Assembly (NCBI RefSeq): GCF_037042905.1
Contig: NC_087250.1
Location: forward strand, 20,772,001-20,836,000
DNA length: 64,000 bases
Direction of reading: 5' to 3'
Source of the DNA: Lytechinus pictus
Lineage: Eukaryota
In this document: piece by piece, positions 8,130 through 64,000 of the stretch
Layout of the letters: each line of letters begins with the position of its first letter
Numbering within the stretch: position 1 is the stretch's first letter
Notes under the pieces: model-generated
Seen by the model: the letters and a program-made list of their open reading frames with translations, nothing else
Databases searched by the model: none
Told to the model about the DNA's origin: nothing
Program-made: the position numbers and the translations under genes

Positions 8130-8580
8130 ACAGAGGTTTTCGCTGCAATTTGCAATCCCCTAAACACATGCATCATCTTGTGTATAGAAGCAGGCGAATC
8201 GCTGAATGAAATACACCACAAAACATAGCAGCAACTCTTCGTAACGTCGTCAGGCCTACATGAATTACACTTTGCCACCCTTGTCTATGCAATTCGGCAA
8301 TTTGAAAAAAAAAACTGCTACATTTTTTTTTTGAAGAAAAATAAATGTTTACTTGCATTTAATGTTCTTTGAAAATATTGTATTGTTATAAATTTGTGAT
8401 TCCAACCATTTCCTGAAATGGGGTGATTTACCATGGTCCAGTAGGGGTTGTGGTGGGAAACCCTTTCTGGTGTCCGATATTAAAGCTTATATACTTTTTT
8501 ACGGAAAATGATGAAATTATAACGTAACCGGCAATAATTTTGAGGGAATTAGGTTAACATATTTTGCAACTGAAAGAACA
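8130..8580 (+). pseudogene. Exon 3, 5' part: end of SUEL-like domain and a degenerate CUB-like domain with stops
   Basis: Acceptor TTGCATTTCAG| is phase 0 and gives TEVFAAICNPLNTC. A later frame reads INVYLHLMFFENIVLL*ICDSNHFLKWGD..RGCGGKPFLVSDIKAYILFYGK**NYNVTGNNFEGIRLTYFA, a CUB-like pattern with stops at 8389 and 8509/8512. Confidence 0.5.
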
Positions 8581-9745
8581 CAATTTTCTTCCCAACAGGG
8601 CAACACAAAAGGTTCAGCATCCCCCGGTACAACCACACAAGGTACAACCACAAAAGGTTCAACTACACAAGGTACAACCACACAATTTCCAACAAGCGAA
8701 GGTACGGCCACACAAGATCTAACCACCGAAGGTCCAACAACCAAAAGTCTAACCACACAAGTTACACCCACCCAAGGTACAACCACACCAACTGCCACCA
8801 AATTTACAACCGCACATGGTACAACCATGCAAGGGCCAACAACTTTAGGTACAGCCACACAAGGTCCAAACAACAAAGTTACAACCACACAGGGAACAAC
8901 CAAACAATTTCTAACAACCGAAGGTACGGCCACACAAGGTCCAACCACCAAAGGTCCAACAGCCGAAGGTTCAACCACAAAATTTCCAACAACCCAAGGT
9001 ACTACCACACCAACTGCCACTAAAGTTACAACCGCACATGGTACAACCATGCAACGGCCAACAACTTCAGGTACAGCCACACAAGGTCCAACCACCCAAG
9101 TTACAACCACACAACGTACAACCACACAAGGTCCAACAACCACAAAATATCCAAAAGCCCAAGGTTCATTCACTCAAGGGCCGGCAACACAAGGTCATAC
9201 CACAAAAGTTACCACCACCCATGTAACAATCACCAAAGGTGCAGCCACCGACGGTCTAACCATACACGGTAAAAAAAAACCCCTCAATGTCCAACAACCA
9301 AAATAACGACCACACAAGGTCGAACAACCCAAGTTCCAACCACTTAAGGCTCAATCACATAAGGTACAACCACACAATTTCCAACAATCGAAGGTACACC
9401 CACACAAGATCAAACAACACAAGGTACACCAACCAAAGTTCCAATCACCCAAGGTACAACCACACTAGCCCAACCACCCAAGGTCTAACAACCAAGGGTA
9501 CGACCACACATGGTACAAACACACACTGTACAACTTTACACAAGGTCCAACAACCCAAAGTGCAACAACCCAAGGTCCAACCACCCAAGGTGCATCCACA
9601 CAAGGTATAACTACACAACGTCATACAGCACAAGAACCAACCAACAAATTTTCAACAACCACAGAAACAACTACACAAGGGTCAACCATGCAAGTTTTAA
9701 CACCAAAAGCTCCCACCAACCAAGGTACAGCTCCCAATCAGGGTG
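8581..9745 (+). pseudogene. Thr-rich mucin-like stalk (QG[T/P]TT, ~15-bp unit repeats)
   Basis: Frame is open from 8515 to 9306 (TTTQGTTTKGSTTQG...). The same CAAGGTACAACCACA repeat continues to ~9745 but with frameshifts, the first near the A-run at ~9271. Confidence 0.7.
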
Positions 9746-10050: not shown

Positions 10051-11936
10051 TTAAAGGAGAAATATATTGAAAATCGTAAAAATGGAGAATCATATATCAA
10101 ATCAAAGGAGAAAATAAGGAGAACACGATGGTGTACATCATTTATCATGGAGACCGATGGAACTCAGTTAATTGATTGTTTAAAGTTCTCTCTCTGAATG
10201 CTTCAAACACTCAGAATTACGTCCGCGAAATTGGGGATTTTTTATGACGTCACTTTCTGTACGAGATGCGTGATTGGCTCTCCCACGTGAAGCTCCACTT
10301 GCATGCAAAACCTGTTGCGAGGGTACGTTTTCTCCACTCTGTCACTGAATACTTCGATCACGAAATGACAGAAAACCCAGAATTTTATCTAGATTTGGAT
10401 TTTCAAATTGATGATTTTGAAGATGAAGAGAAAGATGATGAAGTGAACAACAAAGTGACGTAGTTGGGGGTAAATTGGGGGAATCGATGATGAGGGGTCG
10501 GACAATTCAACTTGCAACACGATCACATGCCGATTCGCTACCAACTCATGCAGCTGCTAAGTGCCTAGCTACACCGCGCGTGCCAAATTGAATTCACGAA
10601 AATGACTTACCACACTGTCCAGACAGAGTCTCTTACTTCTGTGACTATGAAGAAGGAAAATAATGATAAAACTGTACTTACAAATAAGTGAATGTAATCC
10701 GAACCTGAAGGCAAATCAACTCAACGAATAGCAGCAGACGATATGCACCGATGATAAACTTCATGTGGCTGGGATAGATTGTCACTCGTTCAGTTAGATG
10801 TAATTTTTATCTCATTAATTTGACAAAATTACGAAACTCGGGGAATTATTTATCTATATAAAAAAATAGTAACATCTCGTATAATTTTTAAATTACGATA
10901 AAACGTTTTTTGAAGGAAAACGTTGAGATAAATTAAAATTAGATGTAAAAGATCCCCAACATGCGCAGCTTGATTGAGAGCTGTGCAACACGTGCATAGA
11001 TCTACTCTCTCAGCCAAGGCGAGCAAGCAATACGGCATGTTTGTGATTTTGATTACGATCACATATACGAGCTTTTAAAAGGTTTTATCGTAATTTAAAA
11101 AATAATACGAGATGTTACTATATTTTTATATAGATAAATAATTCCCCGAGTTTCGTAATTTTTTCAAATTAATGAGATAAAAATTACATCTAACAGAACG
11201 AGTGACAATCTATCCCAGCCACATGAAGTTTATCGTCGGTGCATACCGTCTGCTGCTATTCGTTGAGTTGCCTTCAGGTTCGGATTACTTTCACTTGTTT
11301 GTAAGTACAGTTTTATCATTATTTTCCTTCTATATAGTCACAGAGGTAAGAGACTCTGTCTGGACAGTGTGGTAATTCATTTTCATGAATTCAATTTGGC
11401 CCGCGCGGTGTAGCTAGCACTTAGCAGCTGCATGAGTTAGGTAGCGAATCGGCAAGTGATCGTGTTGCAAGTTGAATTGTCCGACTCATCATCATCGGCG
11501 TAATTACCCCAATTTACCTCCAACTACGTCACTTTGTTGTTCATTTCATCATCATTCTCTTCATCTTCAAAATCATCAATTTGAAAATCCAAATCTAGAT
11601 AAAATTCTGGGTTTTCTTTCATTTCGTGATCGAAGTATTCAGTGACAGTGTGGAGAAAACGTACCCTCGCAACAGGTTTTGCATGCAAGTGGAGCTTCAC
11701 GTGGGAGAGCCAATCACGCATATCGTACAGAAAGTGACGTCATCAAATTCAAGTCAATTCAGAGACCGATGCGAGGCATATTTCGGAGAGGCATTTTGAG
11801 CGTTTTTTAATCGGCGATTTTCACCTTATGTATTATTTTCGTTATTTTTGAATGACCCACTGATAATCCCCACATCATTACCTTTCCATTGACATATAAT
11901 AAGACCACATTCATAATCAATATAGTTCTCCTTTAA
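10051..11936. mobile_element. Kolobok-like element (TTAA TSD) containing a ~660-bp internal inverted repeat
   Basis: TTAA|AGGAGAAATATATTGA ... TCAATATAGTTCTCCT|TTAA. Internal arms ~10244-10904 and ~11082-11743, each carrying a near-identical 65-aa acidic ORF. Confidence 0.8.
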
Positions 11937-20910: not shown

Positions 20911-21668
20911 CCGAAAAGATGTGGTGATCAACTTGTTTGATTCTGGAATGCTACATGACCTTCAAGAGTCCGGAGGACTGGCCCAAATGTTCTCTGTGTG
21001 CCATGGACAACCGCAAAAATGCCTGACTGCTGATCTCCTGACTTCCTGTGGTTGGTGTTTGGGTTTCTTTTGATGTCATCTGCCATCTTTCCCTACTCCT
21101 GCGATTATAAATGATTTTAAGTCATAGTATTCTGTAGTTACTCTTTGGAAAGTCAAGAAAAGAATGACGTCTTTGGTCACTTGGACTTTATTAATATCAG
21201 TCAGTCTCCAGATGTAGCACAATTCGTGGTGGTAGCTTTTGATCCCAGTCTGCATCATTTTGTAACAAACCACAACGGTTCGTAATGGTCGTATCCGAAC
21301 GTACATGCACGTACCAAATAGTCGTAAATCAAGTATCTGATCGTGATGTTCGTACCAGATCTTTACCTAACCGCGTACTCAATCGGAATAATCCCATCGG
21401 AATGTATTCGATTATATTTGAACGGGATACCAGATCGTGGCACCTGATAATGACAAATTGTTACCCATCCCATACAACATGAGCATTAAATTGTATCCAT
21501 TAGTATTACCTCGTATTTCAACGTGAAATTGCAGATAAGTTGACCAAAAAAAATTGCGATCAGCTACGGAAAGACAATCGTGGCGTTCGTAGCGCGATTC
21601 GTGACAATGGGAACTTGGTCATGTTGGTAGTACAACCGTTTATGGCGCGCCGTTTGACCAATAATTCA

Positions 21669-21952
21669 GATAAACACTGTTTATCGCCGATAAATAGTGT
21701 TTATCGCCGAAAAACACTGTTTATCGAGCGATAAACACTGTTTATCAAGCGATAAACAGTGTTTATCGAGAGAAACTATGTTTATCGACTGAAAAACACA
21801 GTTTCTCTCGATAAACAGTGTTTATCGCCGAAAAACACTGTTTATCGCCGATAAACACTGTTTATCGAGAGAAACTGTGTTTATCAGTCGAAAAACATAG
21901 TTTCTCTCGATAAACACTGTTTATCGCTTGATAAACATTGTTTATCGCCGAA
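21669..21952. repeat. Tandem array of 17-bp palindromes (GATAAACA-N-TGTTTATC) with higher-order mirror symmetry
   Basis: About 14 units at ~20-bp period; variant units are mirrored about ~21838. Confidence 0.85.
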
Positions 21953-21976
21953 AACGATCACACGGGCAATGCAGAG

Positions 21977-26897: not shown

Positions 26898-27575
26898 ATG
26901 CAGAGTGAATACTGCCCTCTTGCGTTCACAAGTATCAAAGGTCGGGGGGGGGGCGAATATTTGTTTCCGTACATAGAAACGCTATGGTACATGAGTTATT
27001 CATAAGTTGAGCTAAAAAACTGAAGTGCGCAGGCGCATGGACTAGGCGATAGTTCTATATCTTCATCGATTTTTACATGAACGAATGGACGAGCACACTC
27101 TTGTACATAAATGAATGGTCTCCATCCCAATCTCCCCGCATTCTGAAGTTTCGATTTCTCTCTTGCAATCTCTCTCCCTTCCTCTCTCTTAGCACACTCT
27201 CTCTGCTTTATGAATCATGAATGAATTGACTCGCATTATGTTCTCGCAACCCTCCCTCATCTAAATTTATGTTCCTTACTGAACATGTAAGCCAAGTTCT
27301 CCCTCTCTGTTGCTCTCTTTCTCTCCCCTCTCTACATGATTATGCCTATAACTTTTAGAAATACATTGATGCCTATAAATAAAACTTAATGTTGAATTTA
27401 AATGTTGATCAGGATTCATGAAGACCTAAAATCTCAAGAGCTTCAAGCTATAGTAATTTCAGTTTGAGTGATTTATGATTTAGTTATACTTTCCCCGAAC
27501 CCCCAAGTCACATTTCAATGTCGAATATTCCTTGCAGACAAATATAAATCATTTTGTGGGGGCTGACCGAGGAGG

Positions 27576-29442
27576 TCGATATTAGTCCTAAGGTAGTTAA
27601 ATATTCAATTCATGCAATAGTTTCCCCTTTATGTAAAATCATTAATATGTCTCTTGAAAATGGTGTGTTTCCGAACTCTTTAAAACTTGCTAAAGTAACT
27701 CCTATCTTTAAGAATGGTAATAAAACACTAGTAACTAACTACCGACCCATATCAATTTTATCAGTTTTCAGCAAGGTTTTTGGAAAAAAAGTATATGACA
27801 AATTGATAGCATTTATTTCAAAACACAACATATTATATAACAAGCAATTCGGTTTCAGACACGGATACAACACTGCTCATGCATTAATTGATTTAACTGA
27901 AAAAATAGTTAAGGAATATGAAAACAAAGCAATAACGATTGGTGTATTTTTAGACTTATCTAAAGCATTCGATTGTATAGACCATAATATTTTAATTGAT
28001 AAGCTATCATCATACGGGTTTAGAGGGACAGTTTTTGAAGTGGTTAATCAGTTACTTAAGAAATCGAAAACAATGTGTATGCATCGACAAAATTTATTCA
28101 GATTTTCAGGACATTAGAGTAGGGGTACCCCAGGGGTCTAACCTAGGCCCTCTTCCTTTTATACTGTACATAAATGACCTGCAACATGTAAGTAATATTT
28201 TAACTACTAACTTATTTGCAGACGATACAAGTTTATTTTTATCTGGTAAGGATCCCATTCAATTAAATAATATTTTGAAATTCTGAAATGGAAAAAGTTC
28301 ACATGTGGTTCCAAGCCAACAGACTACAAATTAACACTAAGAAGACATCTTTTATGATTTTCAAGCTTAAAAATTAAAAAAATTGAAGAAAACTCCATAA
28401 AATTATAAATGATTTTGAAATTCAGAAAGTGCAATATACGAAATTCCTAGGTGTCACAATTGACGATAGCATGAGTTGGAAACAACATGTAAATAATATT
28501 TCTATGAAGATTTCTCAAACCATTGGTATACTTAATAGAATCAAAGGTGACTTACCATTGCATATTCGTGTTCAATTATACAATACAATGATACTCACGC
28601 ATCTCAGCTATTGCAATATCTTATGGGGGGACTGTGCAAATTTTTTAATGCTACAATTATTTCGCTTACAAAAACGGGCAATAAGAATAATAACAAATTC
28701 CCCATATTTAGCTCACTCTCATCAATTATTCCGTAAATTAAAGATTCTAAAAATTTATGATATACATACCCTTCACACTGCAAGTTTTATGTTTTCATAC
28801 TACAAGAATCAGTTGCCTGACACATTCAACAGTTATTTTAAAACAAATCGCAGTGTAAACAAATATAATACGAGAAATTCTGATAATTTATGCATTCCTT
28901 TTTACCGCTTTTCTTTCTCAAGAACAGTCACAAGTTATAGTGGACCACTCATATGGAACAGTTTGCCCCCTGAAATCAAAGAAAGTCCTTCGCTAAATTC
29001 ATTTAAAGTAAGATGTAAGTCTTACCTTCTAAATATGTATACTTCACCATGTTCTCAGTGAACAAGCTTGCTTGCTTTTATGTGTATGTTTTTTAAACAT
29101 ATTTTTTTGTAATATAGTTGTTATTTTTTTTCCAATTTTTCATTAGTTTGTTGATTTCGTTTATTTTGAAATGTGTGTTTCTTGCAATCTAATAAATTGA
29201 TTGCAGGATGGTCTTTTTTCGGTAATGAATGTTAATCAGGGAGTAGCCTAGATAAGTCTAATTGGCTTTTGCTATTCCCCCACATCGCATTCATTACCCT
29301 ATGTATTTTGTTATTTTTGTTAATTTGTCATTTTACAATATTTATTACTCCTTTACTATGGAATCATTTTGATTGATCTCGATATATTGTATCTTGTATT
29401 TTTTTTTTTTACAGATGTGAAATAAATGAATTTGAATTTGAA
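27576..29442 (+). mobile_element. 5'-truncated CR1/L2-group (Crack-like) LINE, frameshifted RT ORF2
   Basis: RT motifs YRPISILS, QFGFR, FLDLSKAFD, GVPQGSNLGP, LFADDT, KFLGV and WNSLP across ORFs 27554-28117, 27996-28286 and 28429-29061. 3' UTR ends AATAAA-(TGAATT)n. Confidence 0.93.
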
Positions 29443-29469: not shown

Positions 29470-29880
29470 TCAATCTATAAAGTATTCAAAATTTATATAT
29501 ATCAACAATCGAACTGATATGTCATCATATCCACTTGCTTTAGATTGTACAAGAGTGAATAAAATTTCTTTAACTTCTGAACTTGTTATTTGCAGGAAGA
29601 AAAATATTTGACTAATGTATGGACCCATGAACTCTCGGTAATTAACATTAGGCTCCTCAATTTTCTCAGCTAGATTTTTCCCAATAGTAGAGAAATAATT
29701 GTTGAGTGAATTTGCTATATCAACAGATGAAGTAATTTCGGAAGGTTCATTTTCTTGGTTAACAACTAATTTTTGAATTTTTGAATTCAGATTCGAGCCA
29801 CTATTTTTAATCAAAATTTCATTGATATGACTCCACGTTTTCTTTGAATCTTTTTTGTCTGCTTTCTCGTTAACTTTTCC
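29470..29880 (-). mobile_element. LINE ORF2 fragment (endonuclease-RT linker region)
   Basis: KTWSHINE..., IANSLNNYFSTIGKNLA and KASGYDDIS are typical CR1/L2-group pre-RT motifs. Confidence 0.8.
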
Positions 29881-30137
29881 AAATGGCTAATGCAGCACAA
29901 TAATAGACTTGGATTCCATCCTCCAAAGCAATGTGATTTAAAGTGAAGAAAATGGCGCTAAGTATACGGATATATATATATATATATATATATCTATTCA
30001 TACATATTTTGTGTGTGACTAAGTCAATGTTGAAACAATTATGCTTGTTTTATTCGTATTATTGCAGCACAATAATAGACTTGGATTCCATCCTCCAAAG
30101 CAATGTGATTTAAAGTGAAGAAAATGACGCTAAGTAT

Positions 30138-30204
<67 letters not shown>

Positions 30205-30301
30205 GACTATACGAAACTACAGTTACTGAAAAGTGCTCAACTACATGTACATATAGGAGCTTCATGTAGTATAGTAATAGGGTGGAGCGAGTTGCTTAGA
30301 T

Positions 30302-30348
30302 TTTAGTTGTAGAGACTGTTTCCCCCTGAGGGTTCATCAGCAACTAAA
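30302..30348 (-). ncRNA. Type I hammerhead ribozyme, copy with a helix III mismatch
   Basis: Same as 32318-32364 except position 30312, giving a CUA cleavage triplet and a C-C mismatch in helix III. Confidence 0.7.
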
Positions 30349-30554
30349 TCAAATTTAATGATGAACTAAAGTACAGTTAAAGAGAACAATAACTCTAGTG
30401 CAGTCAAGCAAACAAACAAAAGACACAATGTAAGGGGGATAAATGACTACAGTGAACAGATAATAGCTCTATTCTTTAAACTGAGTAAGGAGAATTGGGG
30501 TAATGTTGGGGTGGAGTGGGTTTGACACATAAGGGGGGGGGGGGGGTTCTATGG

Positions 30555-31090
30555 TTAACCATAACCTGAAAGTAAAAATGTCTTATTGTGTTTACAAGTT
30601 GAAATGAGTTCTGTTCTTGAGTTTATCATTGCTGCTTTCTTGGCCGTGATTATGTGGTACTTCTCCCACAGACACAGGTTGCATCTCTTTGTTTTGGGTG
30701 AGTAGGGCTGCGCATGTCTTACGATTCTCCATTTGACTGAGTAGGGCGTTCCTTCATCCTTCAGTCTCCATATGTACTCGCTGAGCTTAGTTTGGTGCCG
30801 TTTCCCCCGATTTGTGATGCTTGCTTTGTGGTTTGCGTATCTTGTCTTGAATGGAGTTGATGTGAGCCCGATGTACACTTTCCTGTCCCTAGATGTCACT
30901 ACCTCGGCTTCATAGATGAAATTGGTGGCCATGCATTTTCCAGGGATCGGACAGTCTTCTTTCTTTCTGCAGTTGCAGGAGTCCTTGGTTTTGTCTTTGC
31001 TAGTGTCTGTAATCTTGTTGTTGTGAGCTTTTATTGCTGTGGCCATATTGTCCATGCAGCTATAGCTGACTTTCAGCGTGTTTCTGTTGC
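30555..31090 (-). pseudogene. Penelope GIY-YIG endonuclease domain
   Basis: CNCRKKEDCPIPGKC..FIYEA..KVYIGLT..FKTRYANH..LCLWEKYHII; GIY-YIG motifs with the Penelope Cys linker. Confidence 0.9.
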
Positions 31091-31782
31091 AGACCTTGTG
31101 GAGCTGATGTTTTTTGGGAAGTGCTGTTCCACAAGGGCTAGGAACTTTCTGCCGATGTTCGTCCTAACATGCTTGCTGTAGGGTGGGTTGAACCATGTTA
31201 TGTTTCGTTTTCTTTGACGTTGGGTTTCTTTACTGCCACTTGTTGAATGTCTCGGTGAGTATACCAGCTTGGGCTTGTGTCCAGCATCTTGAAGTGCTTT
31301 CTCGTAGTCTGGTTTGGCACTGCTGAAGATGTTTTCGCTACTGGAAATGTTGACAGGCGGGTTTGGATGGACTGCGATATTCTCTTGGTGACATCCGGCG
31401 GATGATTCGATTCGGCATGTACATATAGATGGGAGTCTCCTGGTTTTGAAGAAGGTCTGAACTCTTTCTTGGAGAGGTCGAATGTCACATCAAGAAAGTC
31501 GACAATGGTTGCATTAGCATTGGCTGTGATCTGAAGTCCGAACTCTTTGAATTTCTTGCAGAGGTCCTTCTTTATGTTCTCGGCTGCTCTAGGGGATGCA
31601 TGGACAATCGCCAGGCCATCGTCTCGATATAGACCAATGTTTGTTTTGGGGATTATGTTGCTGACTTCCGCCAGTATGTATGCGCCTACTAGTTCGCATT
31701 TCTTACGAGCCGTCATACGAGCCCATGGTGACGTCGAAGAGGCCCTCAGCGTTCGCCTTCTGCCAGGTCTCGTTGTTGTGGA
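31091..31782 (-). pseudogene. Penelope reverse transcriptase C-terminal part (frameshifted)
   Basis: FDVTMGSYDG, GLYRDDGL, FLDVTFDL and YVHAESNHPP motifs. Confidence 0.9.
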
Positions 31783-32317
31783 AGACTACGAGAAAGCACT
31801 TCAAGATGCTGGACACAAGCCCAAGCTGGTATACTCAAACCACAAAGCAAGCATCACCAATCGGGGGAAACGGCACCAAACTAAGCTCAGCGAGTACATA
31901 TGGAGACTGAAGGATGAAGGAACGCCCTACTCAGTCAAATGGAGAATCGTAAGACATGCGCAGCCCTACTCACCCAAAACAAAGAGATGCAACCTGTGTC
32001 TGTGGGAGAAGTACCACATAATCACGGCCAAGAAAGCAGCGATGATAAACTCAAGAACAGAACTCATTTCAACTTGTAAACACAAGAAGAAATTTTTACT
32101 TTCAGGTTATGGTTAACCATAGAACCCCCCCCCCTATGTGTCAAACCCACTCCACCCCAACATTACCCCAATTCTCCTTACTCAGTTTAAAGAATAGAGC
32201 TATTATCTGTTCACTGTAGTCATTTATCCCCCTTACATTGTATCTTTTGTTTGTTTGCTTGACTGCACTAGAGTTATTGTTCTCTTTAACTGTACTTTAG
32301 TTCATCATTAAATTTGA

Positions 32318-32364
32318 TTTAGTTGCTGATGAACCCTCAGGGGGAAACAGTCTGTACAACTAAA
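32318..32364 (+). ncRNA. Intact type I hammerhead ribozyme in the Penelope terminal repeat
   Basis: UUUAGUUG-CUGAUGA-A-CCC-UCAG-GGG-GAAA-CA-GUC-UG-UA-CAACUAAA. It has an 8-bp helix I, a complete CUGAUGA/GAAA core, helix II, helix III ACA/UGU and a GUA cleavage site (predicted cut after 32356). Confidence 0.85.
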
Positions 32365-32388
32365 ATCTAAGCAACTCGCTCCACCCTA

Positions 32389-32399
<11 letters not shown>

Positions 32400-32425
<26 letters not shown>

Positions 32426-32850
32426 GAAATAGTCTGCTTCGGCATAAGGAATAAAATAATCACAAAAGGTTTAGTAAATGCCGTAAAAATGCCGTTTATA
32501 AATATATAAACGGCATTATGACTCTTATGATTTATATATATAAATGATTTATATATATAAATGATTTATAATTTATATATAAATTATTTATTTATATATA
32601 TTATTATATATATTATATTTATTTATATATATTTATTAATTAATAATTTATTTATAAATCATAAATCATTATGATTTATATATATAAATATATATATTTA
32701 TATATATATTTATATATATATAAATATATATAAATATATATATATTTATATATATTTTATATATAAAATTTAATATATAAATATATATATGTATAAATGC
32801 CGTTTAGTAAATGCCGTAATGTATGAATATATATATATATATATATTCAT
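32400..32850. repeat. (TA)n and AT-rich low-complexity tract
   Basis: Direct inspection. Confidence 0.8.
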
Positions 32851-33812
32851 ACATATTTTGTGTGTGACTAAGTCAATGTTGAAACAATTATGCTTGTTTT
32901 ATTCGTATTATGCTACTCGAAAAAAAAATGATACTTTATCATTTTTATAGTTTATATTGAATGAATATAATAAAGGCAAATAATTCATCCATATATATTG
33001 TGTGTGATTGAGTCAGTGTTGAAACAATTATGTCTATTTTATTTGTATTATGCTACTCGAAAAAAAATTAGGATACTTTATACATGTATTTTCTATTGAA
33101 TGAATATGATAAAGACAAAATAACAACAATAACAATCATTTTCTGGTGCTATTTTAGGGCTGGCCTGGTATGGTGCGGACAAAGAAATCTGTGTCGTTAG
33201 TCTATTCTATCACACGGCGGTTGCTTGTTTGGTCTTGTATTAGCGCAGTATCTAGTAATATATTATTTCAATTCATTTCATTTCTTGATATTTGTTTGTT
33301 TGGGGCAGAGGGGACTTGACCCCTCCCCCCCCCCCAAAAAAAAAGGAGAAAAAATACCGGTTTCAAAATAGAAAATGTATTTTTTTTTCAAATGAAATGT
33401 CCTTTTTCCAAATTTAATACTCCGTGGGCATATTATGTATTACGTAATACGTTTTGGGCGTAGAAATTCACAAAACGTTTGGTTCGCGATTTGCGAGCAA
33501 AAATTGCTTTGAATGTCCAGTTTTCTAGGTTGGATCATCACATATTTTCTGCTCGCGCTAATTCCTTATTCTTGGTTACAAAATTGCTGTTCAGTTTTCG
33601 GGCTGGGAAAAAAATCAAATGTTTAACTCGTGTTTCGTGCTCACATCATTTACTGTTTAGCAAGGTACTCATCCTGTTTCTGGTTACATAAAATGCTTTG
33701 AATGTCTTGTTTTCAGGTCGGAATATCATATATTTTCAGCTCGGGTTAATTCTTTAGTCAGACAAACATCCCTCTCATGATTACAAAAACTGTTAGGAAT
33801 GCTTAATTCTAT

Positions 33813-40500: not shown

Positions 40501-43035
40501 GAGATAAATAAGGAAGAAATTTGATTTTTTCGCCTTGTTTTTGCAATCTTGTTCTATGTATTGATCTGTGAAAATGAATTGCGGAAGTCTTACGGTACGA
40601 AATTGTTTTCGAACGCATTTATATGCGCGTCCGGAATCACAATAGTGTCCGGTAATACAATTATAATACGTGACTATACTTGAAATTATTGAAATCACCC
40701 AATGACTGTTGCCTTGCCCTTGGTATCGCATACTCGTTCCCACTCACACGTATTGCGAGGTTAGTATTATATTAGTCACTCACACAAGCTAATTACGAGG
40801 TTAGTTAGTATGTTATAGTTTATACTGTGCAGTGACTGGTGTTAAGTACTACTTTACTACTACTTACACGAATATAGTAGCGTCGGACTGTACGCGCACA
40901 GAAGCTGACTCCGGGATCTTTCGGAGGGGATCAATGGTTGCAGTTACCGATTATCTGCAAGTGCAAAGAAAATTCCACTGTAGATTGTAGGTCCTAAATA
41001 TGCAGCTTATAAGTACTGTTCCAGATCACTAGATATTCTGGAATTCAATTGTCTATATCCACTATCCAGTCCAAATTCTACCAGATTCTTCAAGTTCAAA
41101 ATTGAAGGAAGCAGACTACACAGACATGACAGAAGGAGTCCGACGTCGAGACTAATTCTGCGCATCAGAATAGTATGGTATTTTTAAATAGGCACATTTG
41201 ATGCTTGTATTTCCTTCTTCAATTTCTTCTAGTTATGTGACGGTAGGCCTATGAATTATCTCGTAGTTACTGTGAAAGGCCGAGCCAGCTGCAAAGGACG
41301 AGGGTGTTTCTGGAAATTCTGGTCTTGAACTACATTTTTTTTCTTGTTTTTCTCCTTTATTTTCTATATTAATCGACACATTTGCATCCCCCGGTGCATG
41401 CAGCCTCTCTATTCTACCCCATCTTTATTTTTGTTTTCCCCTTCGACTTAGTTTTAGTTCCTCTTTCCCTTCCCATTATTTTCCTTCTCTCTCGATTTCT
41501 TTTCCCCTTATTGCTGGGGGATACCAAGGGTGACATGGATAGACAAGCAAACTTACTTGATCGACCCCCCCCCCTTGGCCCCATTAATAATTATGCGAGT
41601 AGTCGTCTGTATATCATTATCAATTCTCCAATGAACCAGTTTCTAACGTTCTCAACACTGTGTATATTATGCCGGGATATTATGTTGACTGTCAAACAAA
41701 TATCCAACAAACTATAGTTTCCAACATTGTGTCAATGTTAACTGTCAACAACTCTCCAATAAACTATTCCAATTACGCTGTCCACGTTGTGCCATTGTCC
41801 GTTGTTCAACAACTCTCCGTCAAACTAGTTTCCACTCCTTTGTCAACGTTGTGCCATTGTCGACTGTCCAACAAATCTCCAAGAAAATAGTTTCCAACGT
41901 TGTTCCTTTGTCGGTTGTTCAGCAACTCTCCATCGAACTAGTTTCCGACGTAGTCAACGCTGTGCCTTTGTTGGCTGTTCAACACCTATCCAATCAAACA
42001 CGCGTTTCCAACGTTGTGACGTTGTTGGCTGTCCAGCAAATCTCCAACACACTAGTTTCCAATGTTGTGCCATTGTCTGTTGTTCAACAACTTTCCAACG
42101 TTGCCAACGTTGTGTCATCGTCGACTATCCTACTGATCTCCAATCTACCAGTTTCCAACGTTGTGCCAGTGTCAGTTGTTCAACAACCTCCCATCTAACT
42201 AGTTTCCAGCTTTATCAACGTTGTGTCATTGTATACTATCTAACTAATCTCCAATCTACCAGTTTCCAACGTTGTGCCATCGTCGACTATCCAACAAATC
42301 TCCATCGAACTAGTTTCTAGCTTTGACAACGTTGTGCCATAGTTGGTTGTTCAACAACTTTCCATCGAACTAGTTTCCAACGTTGCCAACCTTGTGTCAT
42401 CGTCGACTATCCAACTAATCTCCAACCTACTAGTTTCCATCGTTGTGCAATTGTCGACTGTCCAACAACTCTCCAACTAACAAGTTTCCAACGTTGCCAA
42501 CGTCGTGTCATTGTTGATTGTTCAACAACTTTCCAGCGAACTAGTTTCCAACGTTGCCAACGTTGTGCCTTTGCTGGCTGTCAACAACTATCCAATCAAA
42601 CGTGTCTCCAACGTTGTGACATTGTCGACTGTCCAACAACTCTCCAACTTACTAGTCTCCAACGTTGTGCCATTGTCGACCGTCCAACAAATCTCCAACA
42701 AACTAGTTTCCAACTTTGTCAACGTTGTGCCATTGTCGGTTGTTCAACAACTTTCCAGCGAACTAGTTTCCAACGTTGCCAACGTTGTGCCTTTGCTGGC
42801 TGTTCAACAACTATCCAATCAAACGTGTTTCCAACGTTGTGACATTGTCGACTGTCCAACAACTCTCCAACTAACAAGTTTCCAACGTTGCCAACGTCGT
42901 GTCATTGTTGATTGTCCATCATCTTTCCATCAAACTAGTTTCCAACGTCGATTCAACGTTAATCCATCAAGTTTTTCCAACGTCCAACGACTTTCAAGTT
43001 TCCAACGTGGAGCCAACGTTGGCTTGTTACCTGGG
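37578..43035. mobile_element. 5.5-kb non-autonomous EnSpm/CACTA-like element with CAACGTTG subterminal arrays
   Basis: TIRs CCCAGGTAACAA / TTGTTACCTGGG with 2-bp TSD AT; dense CAACGTTG palindromes at 37590-38160, 38590-38770 and 41620-43020. Confidence 0.8.
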
Positions 43036-53509: not shown

Positions 53510-56468
53510 TTGGGGCTTTCGCTTTTTTGTGGGTATTTTTTCTTATATCGGTCAAATTTCAACACCAGGGGGAGGCACTGTATACTAATTATGTCAAGAA
53601 AATCGGGACAGGGGAACCCAACTTTCCAAAGTCTCCTGGTTTGGAAGTCCGGCTGGATGTCTTCCGGCAGGTTCCCCTTCCAAGAATTCACGTTCTGGTC
53701 TTGAAGCCTCTCCCCCAATTTTATTTCACACATGAGATAATCTTGTATTGAATAGATGATAAATGTAAAGAGGGGAATCCGCACCCCAGGAAATACCTGT
53801 CCTGGGATCCCGTTGGATCTCTTCCTTCTGGGAGGTCACGTGACCCGGTTTCCCCCTTAAAATCTGGTTGATTGTGGCTTGATGAATATTGTTTAGAAAC
53901 TGTGTACTTGTTAAAATATTGTAAATGTCGTTTTAATGATTCTGGTAAAATCCCCCAGAGGCAATAAAGTTGAGAAACGGCAATTTCATGTTCGATCTGT
54001 ATTTATTCTCGCAATAAGATTATTCGAATAAGCGAAGAAGATAGTTTGCGAGAGAAGACAGGTCTTCTCAAAAAACCAATTATTGGCAAGCCATACACGG
54101 CCCGCGAAAACAAAGCGCGCCCCTGCGATTCCGCGGGAATTCTCCAAAGACACGCCCCCAGCAACATGTCTGTGATTGGCTGCGCATGTCATGGATGGCG
54201 CCGTTACACAGCGCCCTTGGTGACAGCCAGGCAACGGCAACGGGGGCACAGCCTCTACGCTAAAAAGAACCAATGAAATGCATTGAAAGAATTCAGGGAC
54301 GTGCGCAATACGCGACAGATTTGGAAGCACATGTTCATTCTCAACTAAGCTCTGGGGGATGCAAGACGTTAATTTGCCCTCCCTCCCGCCCATTTAATAA
54401 TGGTTGTGAGTGGTTGGTTATAATATTGTCAGGGTCGGAGGGTATTGTTTCTGCCTCCAAAAATGTGGTACACATGTTATGAAAAAAGATTGGATGATAT
54501 AATACATGGTTGTTAATAATTCTGTCGTGATTTTTGTTTATACTCAAATCGGTCAAAGGCGATTTTGCTAATTAATCTAAATGTGGTAATAGCGAATTTT
54601 AAAGACGGGGCTCGAGATTGCTCAATGAGCCTGTTTAAGTGCAAGTTGTGCCGGTTACAGTTGATTGAAATAACCTTATATTTTGGTTGGTTATACTGTT
54701 GATAGATAACATGGATTTATTTTGGGTGGTTGGCTGGGCATGTGTTTGGATAGAATTGCATTGGTTGCATAGGCTTGTATTAGTTGACTGGATGGGCTTG
54801 ATTGGCTTGTTGGTCGGATAGACTTTTATTGGTTGGTTGGGCGATATGTTTGGTTGTTTATTATCATAAAGATCCACGCTCTACAAGCAAGGCTTTTAGT
54901 GGATCCCCTCATTTCCAAACAAGTTCTTGTTAATACAATTGCCCAAATTTTCATAATTTGTCTATAGTTGATTTGTAATTACAATTGTTGTGTATTTGTG
55001 TTTATGCATTTAGTGCATATTTGATTTGTACCGTGATTTTTTATGATGTACATGACGGAAGTTCAAAATGAACTCGTTTTTATTCGGTTGGATGTGCTTG
55101 CGCTGGTTGGGTGGATGGGCTTGCTATGATTGGTTGGTTGGTTATAATGATCATAGGGATTCACGCTCTCCAAGTAGTTATTTTAGTGGATCCCCTCATT
55201 TCCAACCAAGCTATTAATACTTTTGTACAAATTTTAAAATTTTGTCTGTAGTGGACCGGCAATTACAATTTATATGTATTTGCAAATTGTTTATGCGCAC
55301 TATGATGCATATTTAATTCGTGTTTGTATTTGGTAATGATGTACAAGATGAACTGAAATTTGTTTGGTGGCTTTATATGGTTGGTTGGCTGGGCTTGTTC
55401 TGGTTGACTACAATTGCACAAATTTTTATAATTTGCAGTTGATTTGGAATTATAATTGATGTGTATTTGTGTTAATGCATTTGATGCATATTGATTGGTA
55501 CCGTAATTTTTTGTGATGTACATGACGAAAGGAACTTGTTTTGTTTGGTTGGATGGGCTAACATTGGTTGGATGTTTAGGCTTGTTATGATTAGTTGATT
55601 GGTTATGATCATATCGATCCACGCTCTATCAGCAGATCCTTTAGAAAGATCCCCTCAGTTTCAACCAAGCTGATAATACTATTGTACAAATATTGAAATT
55701 GTGTCCGTAGTTGACTTGTAATTACAATTGATATGTATTGTCATTGTTTATGCATCATATCATTTATAATTGATTTATGTTTGTATGTGGTAATGATGTA
55801 CAAGGTGAACTTAAACTCGTTTGGCTAGTTAGATTGGCTTTACATGGTTGGATGGTTGGATGGGCTTGTTATGGTTGGTTGGTCGGGCTTGTTATGGTTG
55901 GTTGGTCGGGCTTGATATGGTTGGTTGGATGGGCTTGTTTTGGCTAGTAGGATGGGCTTGTTTTGGTGTTTGGCCTGATTACTGAGTATTTTTTCTTATA
56001 TCGGTCAAATTTCAACACCAGGGGGAGGCACTGTATACTAATTATGTCAAGAAAATCGGGACAGGGGAACCCAACTTTCCAAAGTCTCCTGGTTTGGAAG
56101 TCCGGCTGGATGTCTTCCGGCAGGTTCCCCTTCCAAGAATTCACGTTCTGGTCTTGAAGCCTCTCCCCCAATTTTATTTCACACATGAGATAATCTTGTA
56201 TTGAATAGATGATAAATGTAAAGAGGGGAATCCGCACCCCAGGAAATACCTGTCCTGGGATCCCGTTGGATCTCTTCCTTCTGGGAGGTCACGTGACCCG
56301 GTTTCCCCCTTAAAATCTGGTTGATTGTGGCTTGATGAATATTGTTTAGAAACTGTGTACTTGTTAAAATATTGTAAATGTCGTTTTAATGATTCTGGTA
56401 AAATCCCCCAGAGGCAATAAAGTTGAGAAACGGCAATTTCATGTTCGATCTGTATTTATTCTCGCAAT
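48924..56468 (+). mobile_element. Ngaro/PAT-type tyrosine-recombinase retrotransposon with split direct repeats (A1-internal-B1-A2-spacer-B2), coding region decayed
   Basis: A1 48924-49282 matches A2 54016-54374 (359 bp); B1 53533-54015 matches B2 55986-56468 (483 bp). AAT sits at the left junction, the B1/A2 junction and the right end. Faint RT/YR-like remnants occur in order (YVDCIIPG 51046, CPIDV 52771, KTHF 52984, GRQW 53074). Confidence 0.8.
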
Positions 56469-56599
56469 CATTATTTATTAAATAATAACTATTATTTATA
56501 TATAATTTACATTTTATTTGTAAATAACTACTATTATATAAAATATCATTTCTAATTATTTATATATAATTCCAAGTAATACTTCATTATTTGTAAATA

Positions 56600-57000
56600 A
56601 TAATAGTTCGACATTCCATTATTTATAAATAATGATTATTTATTTTTCATTATTTATAAATAATGATTATTTGTTTTTCATTATTTACAAATAATGATTA
56701 TTTGTTTTTCATTATTTATAAATAATGATTATTTGTTTTTCATTATTTATAAATAATGATTATTTGTTTTTCATTATTTACAAATAATGATTATTTGTTT
56801 TTCATTATTTATAAAAAATGATTATTTGTTTTTCATTATTTATAAATAATGATTATTTGTTTTTCATTATTTATGAATAATGATTATTTGTTTTTCATTA
56901 TTTACAAATAATGATTATTTGTTTTTCATTTATAAATAATGATTATTTGTTTTTCATTATTTATAAATAATTTGTTGAGTTTTCCATTATTTATAAATAA
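56600..57000. repeat. 31-bp tandem repeat TTATTTATAAATAATGATTATTTGTTTTTCA (inverted mirror at ~59500-59880)
   Basis: Period 31; each unit with its junction contains the palindrome ATTATTTATAAATAAT. Confidence 0.9.
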
Positions 57001-60000
57001 TGATTATTTGTTAAATAATGAAAACGTCTACTTCATTATTTATAAATAATTTTTTCGAGTGCACCATTATTCTCATTATTTATAAATAATCATTATTTAA
57101 TGTTCGAGTTTTCCATTATTTATAAATAAAGATTATTTGTTAAATAATGAAATATCTACTTCATTATTTATAAATAATAATTTTGTTTCAATATCCCATT
57201 ATTTATAAATAATCATTATTTATAAACAATTTTTACAGTTTGCCATTATATACAAATAATCATTATTTATATACAAATAACTATTATTTATTAAATAATG
57301 CGATTATTTATTAAATAATGCCATTATTTATTAAATAATGGATAACTCGCTATAACATGCAAATGTGGGACCGCCCATGTTATGAATATTCATGATGCGA
57401 TTTCCTTTTTCGTGATTTTTCTTCACAAATGTTTGTCCATTTCCTCTTCATAATGACATTTCTTGAAGCAATTTTCTAGGGATATGGTCTGATTGTAATA
57501 TTCTTCATTTTCTATATAACTTCGTCTTCGTAGAAATATCAAAAATTGTAATTTTATACGATTTTTCCTACAGTTCACAATCCCCATAGGCGCGCGTGTA
57601 TCGTAGGGACAACCGGTGAATCGACGGAGTGCTCTTCATCGAAATACTACGTTGGTTGGTCCCCGGAAGTGGCGGGCGGAATTTAGCCCGAATCCCGATG
57701 GAAGTAGATCAAGTGCATATGAGCTGAGAGAGTGAAATATCAGTGTACAGGCCCTTCTACTGTTTATAAATATTTCTTGTTGCTTTTTTTGTTAAGTTAA
57801 TTTTTCCTGGTGTAGAGATAAGTTTCAGTTCTAATAATGCACTTCAAATACATTTTGGAGTGTCTGTTTGAGGCGTTTGGGGCGATTTCACCCTGGCCCC
57901 AAAATGCGCTCGCAACGACAATACGGGGGCATGATGACCCCAACATTTTTAAAAACTTATTTTTCTATTGAAAATTATCACAAAATTCACCAAAAGTGTG
58001 CACGAAAGCCTTCGTATTTCACTTTTAAAACTCCAAAAAGTGCCCAAATGACAAGCTTGGTCGCTTCGCTGTGTCGCTTTCAACTTGAGAAAGTTTACGC
58101 GTCTGCTTCCCCCCCCCCCCCCCCCTCCTCCGAAAGAAATTCTGTATACGGCCATGCTCTAAAGAGCCTGGCACATTGATTTATGTATACTTTCATTTTC
58201 ATTATTTTTATCTCATTATCATCATGGCCTTACGCAGATTTTTTTTCCAGGGGGCCGGGGCCGGAGCATGACGCGCGTAAACTTTCTCAAAAAAATCTTG
58301 AAAGCGAGACAGCCACGGGACCAAGCCCAAATGACAAGCTTGGTCGCTTCGCTGTCTCGCTTTCAACTTGAGAACGTTTACGCGCGTCTGCCCCCACCCC
58401 CCGAAAGAAATTCTGTGAACGGCCATGCTCAAAAGAGCATATGGCACATTGATTTATATGTACTTTTCATTTTCATAATTTTTATCACATTATCATCATG
58501 GCCTTACACAGAATTTTTACCAGGGGGGGGGGGGGGGAGCAGCTAGGACGCGCGTAAAGTTTCTCAAAAAAATCTTGAAAGCGAGACAGCGACGCGACCA
58601 AGCTCAAATGACAAGCTTGGTCGCTTCGCTTTTTCAAGATTTTTATGAGAAAGTTTACGCGCGTCCTGCTCCCCCCCCCCGGAAAAAATTATGCGTAAGG
58701 CCATGATGATAATGAGATAAAAATAATGAAAATGAAGTACACATAAATCAATGTGCCAGGCTCTTTAGAGCATGGCCGTATACAGAATTTCTTTCGGAGG
58801 AGGGGGGGGGGGGGGAAGCAGACGCGTAAACTTTCTCAAGTTGAAAGCGACACAGCGAAGCGACCATGCAAGCTTGTCATTTGGGCACTTTTTGGAGTTT
58901 TAAAAGTGAAATACGAAGGCTTTCGTGCACACTTTTGGTGAATTTTGTGATAATTTTCAATAGAAAAATAAGTTTTTAAAAATTTAGGGGTCATCATGCC
59001 CCCGTATTGTCGTTGCGAGCATTTTGGGGCCAGGGTGAAATCGCCCCAAACGCCTCAAACAGACACTCCAAAATGTATTTGAAGTGCATTATTAGAACTG
59101 AAACTTATCTCTACACCAGGAAAAATTAACTTAACAAAAAAAGCAACAAGAAATATTTATAAAAAGTAGAAGGGCCTGTATAATGGTTATTTGTATATAA
59201 ATAATGATTATTTGTATATAATGGCAAACTGTAAAAATTGTTTATAAATAATGATTATTTATAAATAATGGGATATTGAAACAAAATTATTATTTATAAA
59301 TAATGAAGTAGATATTTCATTATTTAACAAATAATCTTTATTTATAAATATTGGAAAACTCGAACATTAAATAATGATTATTTATAAATAATGAGAATAA
59401 TGGTGCACTCGAAAAAATTATTTATAAATAATGAAGTAGACGTTTTCATTATTTAACAAATAATCATTATTTATAAATAATGGAAAACTCAACAAATTAT
59501 TTATAAATAATGGAAAACAAATAATCATTATTTATAAATAATGAAAAACAAATAATCATTATTTGTAAATAATGAAAAACAAATAATCATTATTTATAAA
59601 TAATGAAAAACAAATAATCATTATTTATAAATAATGAAAAACAAATAATCATTATTTATAAATAATGAAAAACAAATAATCATTATTTGTAAATAATGAA
59701 AAACAAATAATCATTATTTATAAATAATGAAAAACAAATAATCATTATTTATAAATAATGAAAAACAAATAATCATTATTTGTAAATAATGAAAAACAAA
59801 TAATCATTATTTATAAATAATGAAAAACAAAAAATCATTATTTATAAATAATGAAAAATAAATAATCATTATTTATAAATAATGGAATGTCGAACTATTA
59901 TTATTTACAAATAATGAAGTATTACTTGGAATTATATATAAATAATTAGAAATGATATTTTATATAATAGTAGTTATTTACAAATAAAATGTAAATTATA

Positions 60001-60943
60001 TATAAACAATAGTTATTATTTAATAAATAATGATTATATAACAAATAATTGTTCTATATAATATTGGTACATTCGGCGCCTCATACCTATAGGCAGATAG
60101 GTGTTATTGCAACACCTTTGGTTGTTACATGTACACTCTTTGGTGTTATATTCAATCTCTAGGGTGTAATTTTAACACCAGAGGGTGTGGTCCTCTATTA
60201 ACACCCACTGGTGTCAGTTTTAACACTACAGTTTTTACAGTGTATATATATATATATATATGGATGTTATCACGCACTCAGAAAGATTACATTAGTTTAT
60301 ATTGTATACTATTAAGTTTTAATATAGGTATATTTTTGTTATCGGCGCGTGTATATTTACATTAATTTTGAAGATAGCATTTTTATTTGTTCCTTATCCA
60401 CGATAGTTTGGGATCTGAAGATTGATAGATAAACAAAAGATAGACAAGGTGTTTTCTTTTATTTGCACACGTCTGAAGCATACCGACATATGTTTTTATA
60501 CCCACCGAGAACATAAAATATATTTCCCTTGGGTATACTGGCGTATACATTACATTGGAACGTTGCAGTCTGATCCCAAAATAGAAATAACCAAGAAAAT
60601 TAATGTTTAAATAATAACAACACAGGTAGGTAGAAGAGCGTTTTTTAATTTGTTCCTGAATGGTCTTTGTGATAAAAGGAGATTGGATAAATAATTTAGT
60701 ATTTATAAAATAACTAATTTGCTGAAGCAGGATGGTGATTTTTTTTCATTTTGTTAGTAAGTTTAATATTCAATATAACTCTCTTGACTATTATTCTGTC
60801 AAATGGATAAATATTTGCAAGGATCCTCCTAAAAAGGGTGTTTATTACCACTGGAAAATTGTATAGCATTAACAAGGTAACGAAAGTATGTGAATTTATT
60901 CATAGATGTGTGTCGAGAAAATGTTTTAAACCCATATTTCCCC

Positions 60944-62792: not shown

Positions 62793-63618
62793 TGATTTTT
62801 TCATTTGGCAAATTACTATTCTTTTAATTTTTGATATTTTATATGCTAAATGTTATGTTTTCTACTCGATGTTTAAAAGGTTATTCATCGTTTTCCTTTT
62901 TCGTTTTTTAAAATTAATCAAAATATCAACACGAGTTTAAAAAAGCATTGTGAGTATTCACCTATTTATAAACATTGAATGTCGTGATGAATCCAGGCAC
63001 ATCGAACTTATTTTATTTTTTCAATACATTTTTAAAGTTTTCTATACATGTATGATATGATTTATGTATCACATGTCTTTTGTATTTAATTTTATGATTT
63101 ATGGAGAAATATTGAATACAGTTCTTCTTTGAAAAAAAAAGGTTGCGGACATTTGCTGTCAGTAGTCAATACAAATGAACCTTTTATTGCCATTTATCAA
63201 GTTTGCTCTCGTTAATTGGAGATTCCGGCAGTTATTCAATTCGGTATAAGCGATATACTGGACGTTTAGCAAACTTATTGATAGCGGTCAACAAACATGA
63301 AGGGTCAACGAAGTGTCAACTAAAGGCCATCACGCGCCTTACGATTGGTCTGCGACCCGATTAGGAATGAAATGTAGGAACATTTGTTGAGAATGTTGAG
63401 AAATGGACCGTCCTACTTTTTTAAAGTTCCAAATCACCATACGAATAGTTATGTTCAATTGTGTGAATATGCTACCTTCCTTATTAAAATATAAGCGAAT
63501 TGAATATCTAATGACGTCATAGCAATCGTACGATTTGAAACCAATTTGTCCTTTACACGAAAATAAAAATGCATCCACTCAAAATTGTTATATTAGTATT
63601 CTTTCATCTTTATTCTTT

Positions 63619-63620
63619 AC

Positions 63621-63664
<44 letters not shown>

Positions 63665-63740
63665 ATACTACTACTTCTACTTCTGATGCTACTACTACTA
63701 CTACTACTGCTGCAGCTGCTGCTGTACTACAACAACAACA

Positions 63741-63808
<68 letters not shown>

Positions 63809-63990
63809 TACTACTGCTACTACAACTACTACTGCTAGTACTACTACTACTAATGCAGCTACCACTGCTGCTACTACTACTTATAATACTACTACTACTG
63901 ATAATAATACTAATAATAATAATACTAATACTACTACTACTGCTGCTACTACTACTACTACTACTACTACTACTATTACTACTACTACTC
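63619..63990. repeat. (CTA/TAC)n compound trinucleotide microsatellite
   Basis: Direct inspection. Confidence 0.95.
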
Positions 63991-64000
63991 CTGCGGCGAT

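Follow-up and report, generated by a model that had tools for sequence, protein, structure and literature searches.

The window analyzed here, a 64,000-nucleotide stretch of Lytechinus pictus DNA, contains two short motifs resembling hammerhead ribozymes, one on the + strand (32318-32364) and one on the - strand (30302-30348). They raise the question of whether a single retroelement insertion can present a self-cleaving ribozyme alongside a natural point mutant of itself, as was proposed in a preliminary description of this DNA.

In the + strand motif, a helix I of eight Watson-Crick pairs (32318-32325/32357-32364) encloses the core CUGAUGA (32326-32332), the helix II region ACCCUCAGGGG (32333-32343), GAAA (32344-32347), the palindromic helix III ACAG-U-CUGU (32347-32355), and the GUA triplet (32354-32356), with cleavage predicted after A32356. 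Positions are given in the standard hammerhead numbering, with which PMC4209133 is consistent. Both copies carry C3-U4-G5-A6-N7-G8-A9, G12-A13-A14, A15.1-U16.1, and H17. A strict descriptor comprising the core, the 15.2-16.2 pair, and five helix I pairs gave one match in the real sequence, as compared with matches in 2 of 100 simulated windows that kept its trinucleotide make-up, and a looser hammerhead scan recovered 32318-32364 and 30302-30348 as the only copies in the window. A search with hammerhead models, which the preliminary description had offered as a check, gave no support: Rfam returned no family at gathering scores for the whole window, and none of the 13 weak matches obtained for 30100-32500 was a hammerhead. 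Folding z-scores of the motif (-1.1 to -1.4) were not significant. The segment is confirmed as a genuine type I hammerhead motif, beyond chance, by the 2-in-100 simulation count together with a placement shared by related elements, in which 49 of 69 endonuclease ends with at least 200 nt downstream (best 80 of 198 confirmed stretches) are followed by a type I hammerhead 92 to 320 nt on. The reading of the + copy as a type I hammerhead with the family allele draws on its sequence, on the letter seen in reads of the family, and on covariation in relatives.

These relatives were obtained in a scan of metagenome contigs that yielded 79 loci (L001-L079) from the best 80 of the 198 confirmed stretches, using a descriptor that presupposed the core and at least three helix I pairs and left the remaining pairs free. 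Within this best 80 of 198, the 49 hammerheads comprise 36 distinct motifs, in which 15.2-16.2 is C-G in 35 and U-G in 1, with G16.2 in all 36; 15.3-16.3 (U-A 29, A-U 6, C-G 1) and 15.4-16.4 (C-G 17, A-U 11, G-C 6, other 2) covary; and helix II has at least two inner pairs in every case. In the same 36 motifs (best 80 of 198), the fourth helix III pair mostly encloses zero to two unpaired bases, which are too few for a hairpin loop; therefore, this pair could form only between two molecules. Covariation had been set beforehand as a test of the fold, and we found that helices I and III do covary across related families. Compensatory change is seen at all eight helix I pairs in 19 hand-chosen rows, taken from an alignment (A2) that misregisters helix III in 5 of the 19 and was used for helix I only, and 98.9% of cells over the four helix III pairs are paired, two of these pairs with compensatory change, in 22 rows selected for a 9-nt helix III. 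These structure counts, which are inflated by the relatedness of the rows, beat 500 of 500 shuffles for both cells paired and covariation score. Within the window's own family, the motif is too uniform to reveal covariation. Variant hammerheads also occur in close relatives, namely, one near 1579 of L005 with GAAG replacing GAAA and a GUC site, one near 1644 of L015 with a longer helix III, and one near 955 of L028 with an unpaired helix II.

The element that carries the motifs lies between two (TA)n microsatellite tracts (30142-30202 and 32393-32420), inside which a target-site duplication is not readable. Its main copy, on the - strand, consists of a 5'-truncated reverse transcriptase (RT)-linker-GIY-YIG open reading frame (ORF) at 30555-31789, corresponding to residues 293 to 706 of a 706-aa relative (tblastn with P0003) and broken into four pieces by frame changes near 31700, 31351, and 31115, followed by a 3' region, or pseudo-LTR, at 30203-30554 that, judged from the sequence and family contigs, reaches the family's long end. 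A shorter inverted copy on the + strand (31783-32396, blastn) carries just the endonuclease end of the ORF, with the endonuclease C terminus extending to 32116, and its pseudo-LTR finishes at the short end. The arms 30270-30840 and 31831-32396 are identical in 558 of 571 blastn columns. The arm alignment stops at 30270, and the remaining stretch of about 67 nt (30203-30269, - strand), between the family's short and long 3' ends, forms a tail on one arm. At the junction, a 55-nt piece (31783-31837, + strand) copies 31256-31310 and then jumps to 30840, which marks an internal deletion in the inverted arm. The hammerhead follows the stop codon by about 210 nt on both arms.

The four ORF pieces show 64 to 79% identity in tblastn with P0003 and a 59 to 79% match to relatives of about 700 aa, and the homolog search identified 84 proteins among 176 candidates. 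The CxCX5C linker and the CxxC and CxH motifs, which flank the conserved E and N, are present in the window translation, and its RT and endonuclease motifs agree, judged by eye, with the published Hydra rows. In the 25 relatives of at least 650 aa, DKT, CxCX5C, CxxC, and CxH are found in 25 of 25, DKG in none, and an RWK-like motif in 17; the DKT/RWK region is absent from the window copy because of its 5' truncation, so these counts come from the relatives alone. The marks of the Hydra clade given by Craig 2021 (PMC8557442) are those seen in these full-length relatives. Of 14 proteins compared with Pfam, a single one had any match, and the four pieces of the element ORF had none; viral contigs gave 15 pattern matches and no relatives. 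By its motifs and sequence similarity, rather than by a tree, the element is placed among the Hydra-clade Penelope-like elements, and its family is a new one within this described class.

The anatomy agrees with this placement. As in the Hydra clade (PMC8557442), the RT precedes a C-terminal endonuclease in one ORF with the CxCX5C linker and CxxC/CxH motifs, the target is (TA)n, and the hammerhead, whose 4-bp helix III is palindromic, lies about 100 to 300 nt past the stop codon; an ACAG/CUGU helix III is also given there for Hydra-1_Amil, Penelope-1_NV, Penelope-1_SK, and Penelope-2_SK. The spacing from ribozyme to ribozyme is 2427 to 2447 nt in L002 to L004, a unit of less than 3 kb. The preliminary assignment to a Penelope terminal-repeat hammerhead of the dimer type is borne out by the endonuclease-linked position and the palindromic helix III. 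Craig 2021 (PMC8557442) describes as common both a neighboring inverted copy that is truncated at its 5' end and a tail on one side, and the supplement of that study includes Penelope-13_HM, in which the inverted 5'-truncated copy likewise places a hammerhead on each strand. Because this published layout includes an inverted copy with a ribozyme per strand, the twin is normal element anatomy. The window element differs from the clade in having a helix II of 3 bp, where A and G stand next to the core, and in the internal deletion of its inverted arm. We rejected a non-LTR retrozyme as the source since the element is coding and has only two, inverted, copies, with no further hammerhead in the window; the animal non-LTR retrozymes (Li et al. 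2026, 10.64898/2026.07.22.740005) share a type I hammerhead related to Penelope-like repeats but are described as noncoding direct tandem repeats. Among the relatives, L003 (5083 nt) has two 708-aa ORFs in tandem and three hammerheads at a spacing of 2427 nt; it is apparently intact, as are L002 and L004, and is a ready source for in vitro work. A sea urchin protein annotated as lactadherin-like (P0083) shows 78% identity over 36% of the endonuclease query and is probably a gene model that absorbed a piece of the same element family.

The least typical part of the ribozyme is the closure of helix II. In the + copy, an A follows A9 and a G precedes G12, with no canonical purine-pyrimidine 10.1-11.1 pair; the predicted energy of the whole fold is -7.8 kcal/mol with a bulged A and a C10.1-G11.1 pair and -6.1 kcal/mol with A10.1.G11.1. 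The dimer-type metazoan hammerheads of PMC4209133 resemble the window motif in being type I, in their palindromic helix III, in their predicted dimer cleavage, in the possible extra base after A9, and in occurring as opposite-strand pairs. They differ in having a helix II of 6 to 8 bp, a short helix I, and a highly conserved G10.1-C11.1 pair, as against 3 bp, 8 bp, and no such pair here. In the 36 distinct motifs of the relatives (best 80 of 198), 10.1-11.1 is U.U in 17, G-C in 8, G.U in 4, A-U in 3, and otherwise in 4; since it is noncanonical in over half of the related motifs, G10.1-C11.1 is not defining for the Hydra-type subgroup. U.U is frequent at this position in the Hydra table of PMC8557442 too. 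At 30323, which corresponds to 11.1, no alternative letter occurs among 40 of the 56 family rows, and G at 11.1 seems from these rows to be fixed in the family. This argues against a mutation at 11.1 shared by the two window copies, which had been considered given that the closest relatives have U. The apparently fixed A and G beside the core offer a natural test of tolerance at a place where hammerheads normally have G-C; in the literature searched on mismatch effects at 10.1-11.1 (including A.G) or 15.2-16.2, we found no measured rate for either.

A second unusual feature is an 8-nt segment upstream of the + copy (32300-32307) that is complementary to the core at 32327-32334 and recurs at 30359-30366 (- strand) beside the - copy. 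Folding predicts that the core pairs with 32300-32307 with a probability of 0.98, 0.34, and 0.93 in contexts of 107, 147, and 280 nt, respectively, and blocking 32305 lowers these values to 0.13, 0, and 0.11. The helix is perfect only with the 30361 allele common to both window copies, from which the family letter differs (all of the depth in three runs and 58% in the fourth), so we consider it a subfamily accident. A conserved switch was rejected because the helix is imperfect in most family copies and not evident in L002 to L004. The preliminary description of the motif as structurally complete is accurate for the core, the 8-bp helix I, GAAA, and GUA, but it is overstated both for helix II, which lacks a canonical 10.1-11.1 pair, and given the predicted upstream helix, which hides the core in both copies.

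These features bear on the alternative that the family hammerhead has no useful cleavage rate even as a dimer, in which case both copies would be inactive and the pair would contain no wild type. We regard this as possible but doubtful. It is consistent with the noncanonical closure, as A.G at 10.1-11.1 occurs in 0 of the 36 relatives (best 80 of 198) and, in our own reading of the published table, in 0 of 26 Hydra rows (PMC8557442), as well as with the predicted occlusion of the core. Related ribozymes are also weak or protein dependent: those in PMC4209133 cleave weakly and not as monomers, and the one in PMC11167929 is reported to cleave only with the element's protein, its cleavage being dispensable for insertion in vitro. 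Against it, the G at 11.1 is apparently fixed (40 of 56 rows) and the core and palindrome are kept, most copies of the family could form the competing helix only imperfectly, and a mismatch at 10.1-11.1 is common in the clade, with the prevalent U.U being a natural variant in hammerheads and the best-tolerated mismatch according to Perreault et al. (PMC3088659).

The - copy differs from the + copy at a single base of the 47, 30312, where G16.2 is changed to C and a C15.2.C16.2 mismatch results. The preliminary description was right about the single difference but placed the broken pair next to the cleavage site; it is C15.2-G16.2, the second from that site, and A15.1-U16.1 is intact. For family alleles, 4 of 24 sequencing runs were aligned to 30201-30700; these runs contain at most 0.30 of the words and therefore show other family copies rather than this locus. 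The letter of the + copy (32354) accounts for 84/84, 5461/5461, 236/250, and 579/579 of the depth at 30312 in the four runs (from 3, 11, 2, and 12 contigs), which identifies the + letter as that of the family and the - letter as derived. The changes at 30312 and 30585 in the - copy are both private relative to the family reads. Alignment of the arms shows 8 substitutions in 566 bases and, in addition, one 5-nt indel, and from this divergence the probability of at least one substitution in 47 nt is 0.50. This value and the three frame changes in the same arm make ordinary decay, neutral in effect, the likely source of the altered letter at 30312. A different origin, in which the letter dates from the insertion itself (through an RT mistake or a template that already carried it) or stems from misassembly, appears improbable to us: one divergent contig in run X11 (depth about 14 of 250) also lacks the family letter at 30312, but the seven other substitutions, the indel, and the three frame changes are spread over the insertion, as would fit later aging.

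The change was expected to impair the - copy, and the predicted energetics agree as far as helix III is concerned, with duplex values of -8.3 (+/+), -4.6 (+/-), and -0.9 (-/-) kcal/mol. The double hammerhead is predicted at -28.1 (+/+), -21.9 (+/-), and -15.7 (-/-) kcal/mol, against -22.4 kcal/mol for two folded monomers and, whichever copies are combined, -31.4 kcal/mol for the best alternative dimer, and in this nearest-neighbor model, the double hammerhead is not the best dimer even for the + copy (-28.1 versus -31.4). The monomer hammerhead fold has a probability of 0.0003, and helix III of the + copy adds 0.3 kcal/mol in the monomer versus the -8.3 kcal/mol of its duplex. The - copy is thus predicted by these models to be impaired, and a mixed dimer would have one of its two cores damaged. 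The notion of a built-in wild-type/mutant pair is not supported as something special or as a clean control: inverted copies are usual, the change is expected from the divergence, and even the + copy departs from the typical 10.1-11.1 pair, with misfolding predicted once its flanks are included. As a control the twin is weak also because the enzyme half of the - copy is intact; the change is on the substrate side only, and the - RNA could therefore still supply the enzyme half when paired with a + RNA. Mutants of this kind can be made synthetically, and core mutants are better controls than the natural twin.

In an active tandem element, the transcript would hold two hammerheads, and the ACAG-U-CUGU of one copy would pair with that of the other to form a 4+4-bp helix III, in which the CUGAUGA/GAAA half of each copy would cut the GUA of the other. 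By analogy with the measured Penelope-like hammerheads, such dimer cutting would probably be slow and aided by the element's protein. The RT-endonuclease may have nicked the (TA)n target and begun cDNA at one of two fixed sites, which could have produced the long end with its tail at 30203 on one arm and the short end at 32396 on the other. At the locus itself, the motifs are oriented outward, which means that no single RNA holds both in sense, and a read-through RNA would fold into a duplex of roughly 570 bp that would hide the ribozyme; for its last 106 nt alone, the predicted duplex energy is -186 kcal/mol. The insertion is probably inert. Drosophila Penelope has an internal promoter in its terminal repeat (PMC2377424), and by analogy, such a promoter could yield an outward transcript with a free ribozyme. 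That the locus is functional, with the + ribozyme cutting a host or outward transcript and the - copy selected to be dead, is very improbable. In its favor, the + copy retains every family position of the motif, and the altered position is invariant among the relatives, at 36 of 36 (best 80 of 198). Against it, the odds that a 47-nt stretch takes a change are even; the core and helix III make up about a quarter of the motif, so that a damaging change is not rare; read-through RNA would fold back; and monomer folding is improbable. We favor, with high confidence, an account in which both motifs belong, as terminal-repeat hammerheads, to one truncated, frame-broken Hydra-clade insertion with an inverted copy in a TA microsatellite, the family ribozyme is predicted to cut after GUA only as a dimer, and the change at 30312 is likely neutral damage; the anatomy, clade motifs, family allele, and covariation in this account are observed, and its mechanism is inferred.

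A conserved hairpin in the one-sided tail is the more useful lead; the hammerhead pair adds one example to a described class. Family contigs either reach TA repeats at 30267-30270 or run on to 30201-30214, giving the family two 3' ends, and the - arm extends about 67 nt past the + arm. Between these ends, downstream of the hammerhead, lies a bulged hairpin, GCUC-CUAUAU-GUAC-AUGUAG-UU-GAGC-ACU (30232-30260, - strand), which we consider a candidate start signal for reverse transcription. The pattern GCTC-N6-20-GAGC is present in 23 of 40 distinct regions behind the hammerhead, a few of these being distant, chance-like matches, as opposed to 0.7% of shuffles. The hairpin is doubled, with copies 55 to 71 nt apart before the start codon, in 9 of 37 regions, namely, those that reach the next ORF. 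The hairpin also stands behind the hammerheads of L002, L003, L004, L006, L007, and L011 to L014. The outer GCUC/GAGC stem is the search pattern and therefore is unable to show covariation. The first inner pair lay outside that pattern, and it forms with a 2-nt 3' bulge in all 26 distinct hairpins (UU in 23 and UC in 3) and with a 0- or 1-nt bulge in none; it is U-A in 15 and C-G in 11.

The ends of truncated regions point in the same direction. Of 28 such regions, 9 were dropped for poor alignment to a longer relative, and of the 19 counted, 15 end 1 to 14 nt before the first or second hairpin; these counts are from the stricter alignment, since a permissive one (15 of 25) overran into AT-rich flanks. 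Among six published consensuses, Hydra-1_Ajap has two such hairpins and starts 2 nt ahead of the first, Hydra-2_Amil has one near its 3' end, and in the other four, two 8-mers did not detect it. These observations suggest that each hairpin positions a reverse transcription start just 5' of itself. A precedent is available in the Poseidon element of Anolis (PAc), for which Frangieh et al. (PMC11167929) describe the tail as the stretch between two RT start sites and report a requirement for downstream RNA. PAc resembles the window element in its AT-rich target, in two 3' ends that bound the tail, and in a hammerhead upstream of the tail. It belongs to another clade and has its start sites in an AC-rich stem loop within the ORF, whereas in the window element both ends fall within the 5' untranslated region, and a copy of the bulged hairpin follows shortly after each.

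We give even odds to the proposal that the doubled bulged hairpin is bound by the Hydra-clade RT, with cDNA starting a few bases 5' of either copy. If so, the doubling would account for the existence of two fixed 3' ends and for a tail on one side only, and this locus displays both ends in one insertion. The rival reading is that the hairpin acts at the DNA level, in endonuclease recognition or as a promoter. An initiation signal of this kind would provide a short, conserved, mutable handle on the choice of internal start sites by Penelope-like RTs. We did not find a description of the hairpin in the literature searched, which included the main texts of Craig 2021 and Frangieh 2024 and had most subscription journals outside its scope.

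The surroundings of the insertion are themselves repetitive. The flanks form a small tandem duplication around the TA tracts, in which 29888-29973 recurs at 30060-30145 (98%) and 29970-30062 recurs at 32819-32911 (96%); the segments involved are 29888-30062, 30060-30179, 32819-32911, and 32983-33051. The element and a further AT-rich insert (about 32420-32820) lie inside the microsatellite of the second duplication unit. Upstream, 27548-29061 (+) and 29470-29886 (-) contain a broken LINE-type RT (Pfam RVT_1, E value of 4e-14), in which the - strand piece resembles the region normally found ahead of the + strand piece. Elsewhere in the window, 10240-11747 is an element of about 1.5 kb with long inverted arms that are 94 to 97% complementary and a center of roughly 200 nt, and 56466-60035 is a large fold-back with arms of a 31-bp AT-rich tandem unit and inner inverted arms (57741-58059 with 58869-59185), at 80 to 99% complementarity. 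Tandem repeats with units of 15, 20, 51/60, and 9 nt occupy 8515-9630, 21649-21967, 41717-42948, and 63559-63997, respectively, and the array at 41.7 to 43.1 kb sits in long open frames.
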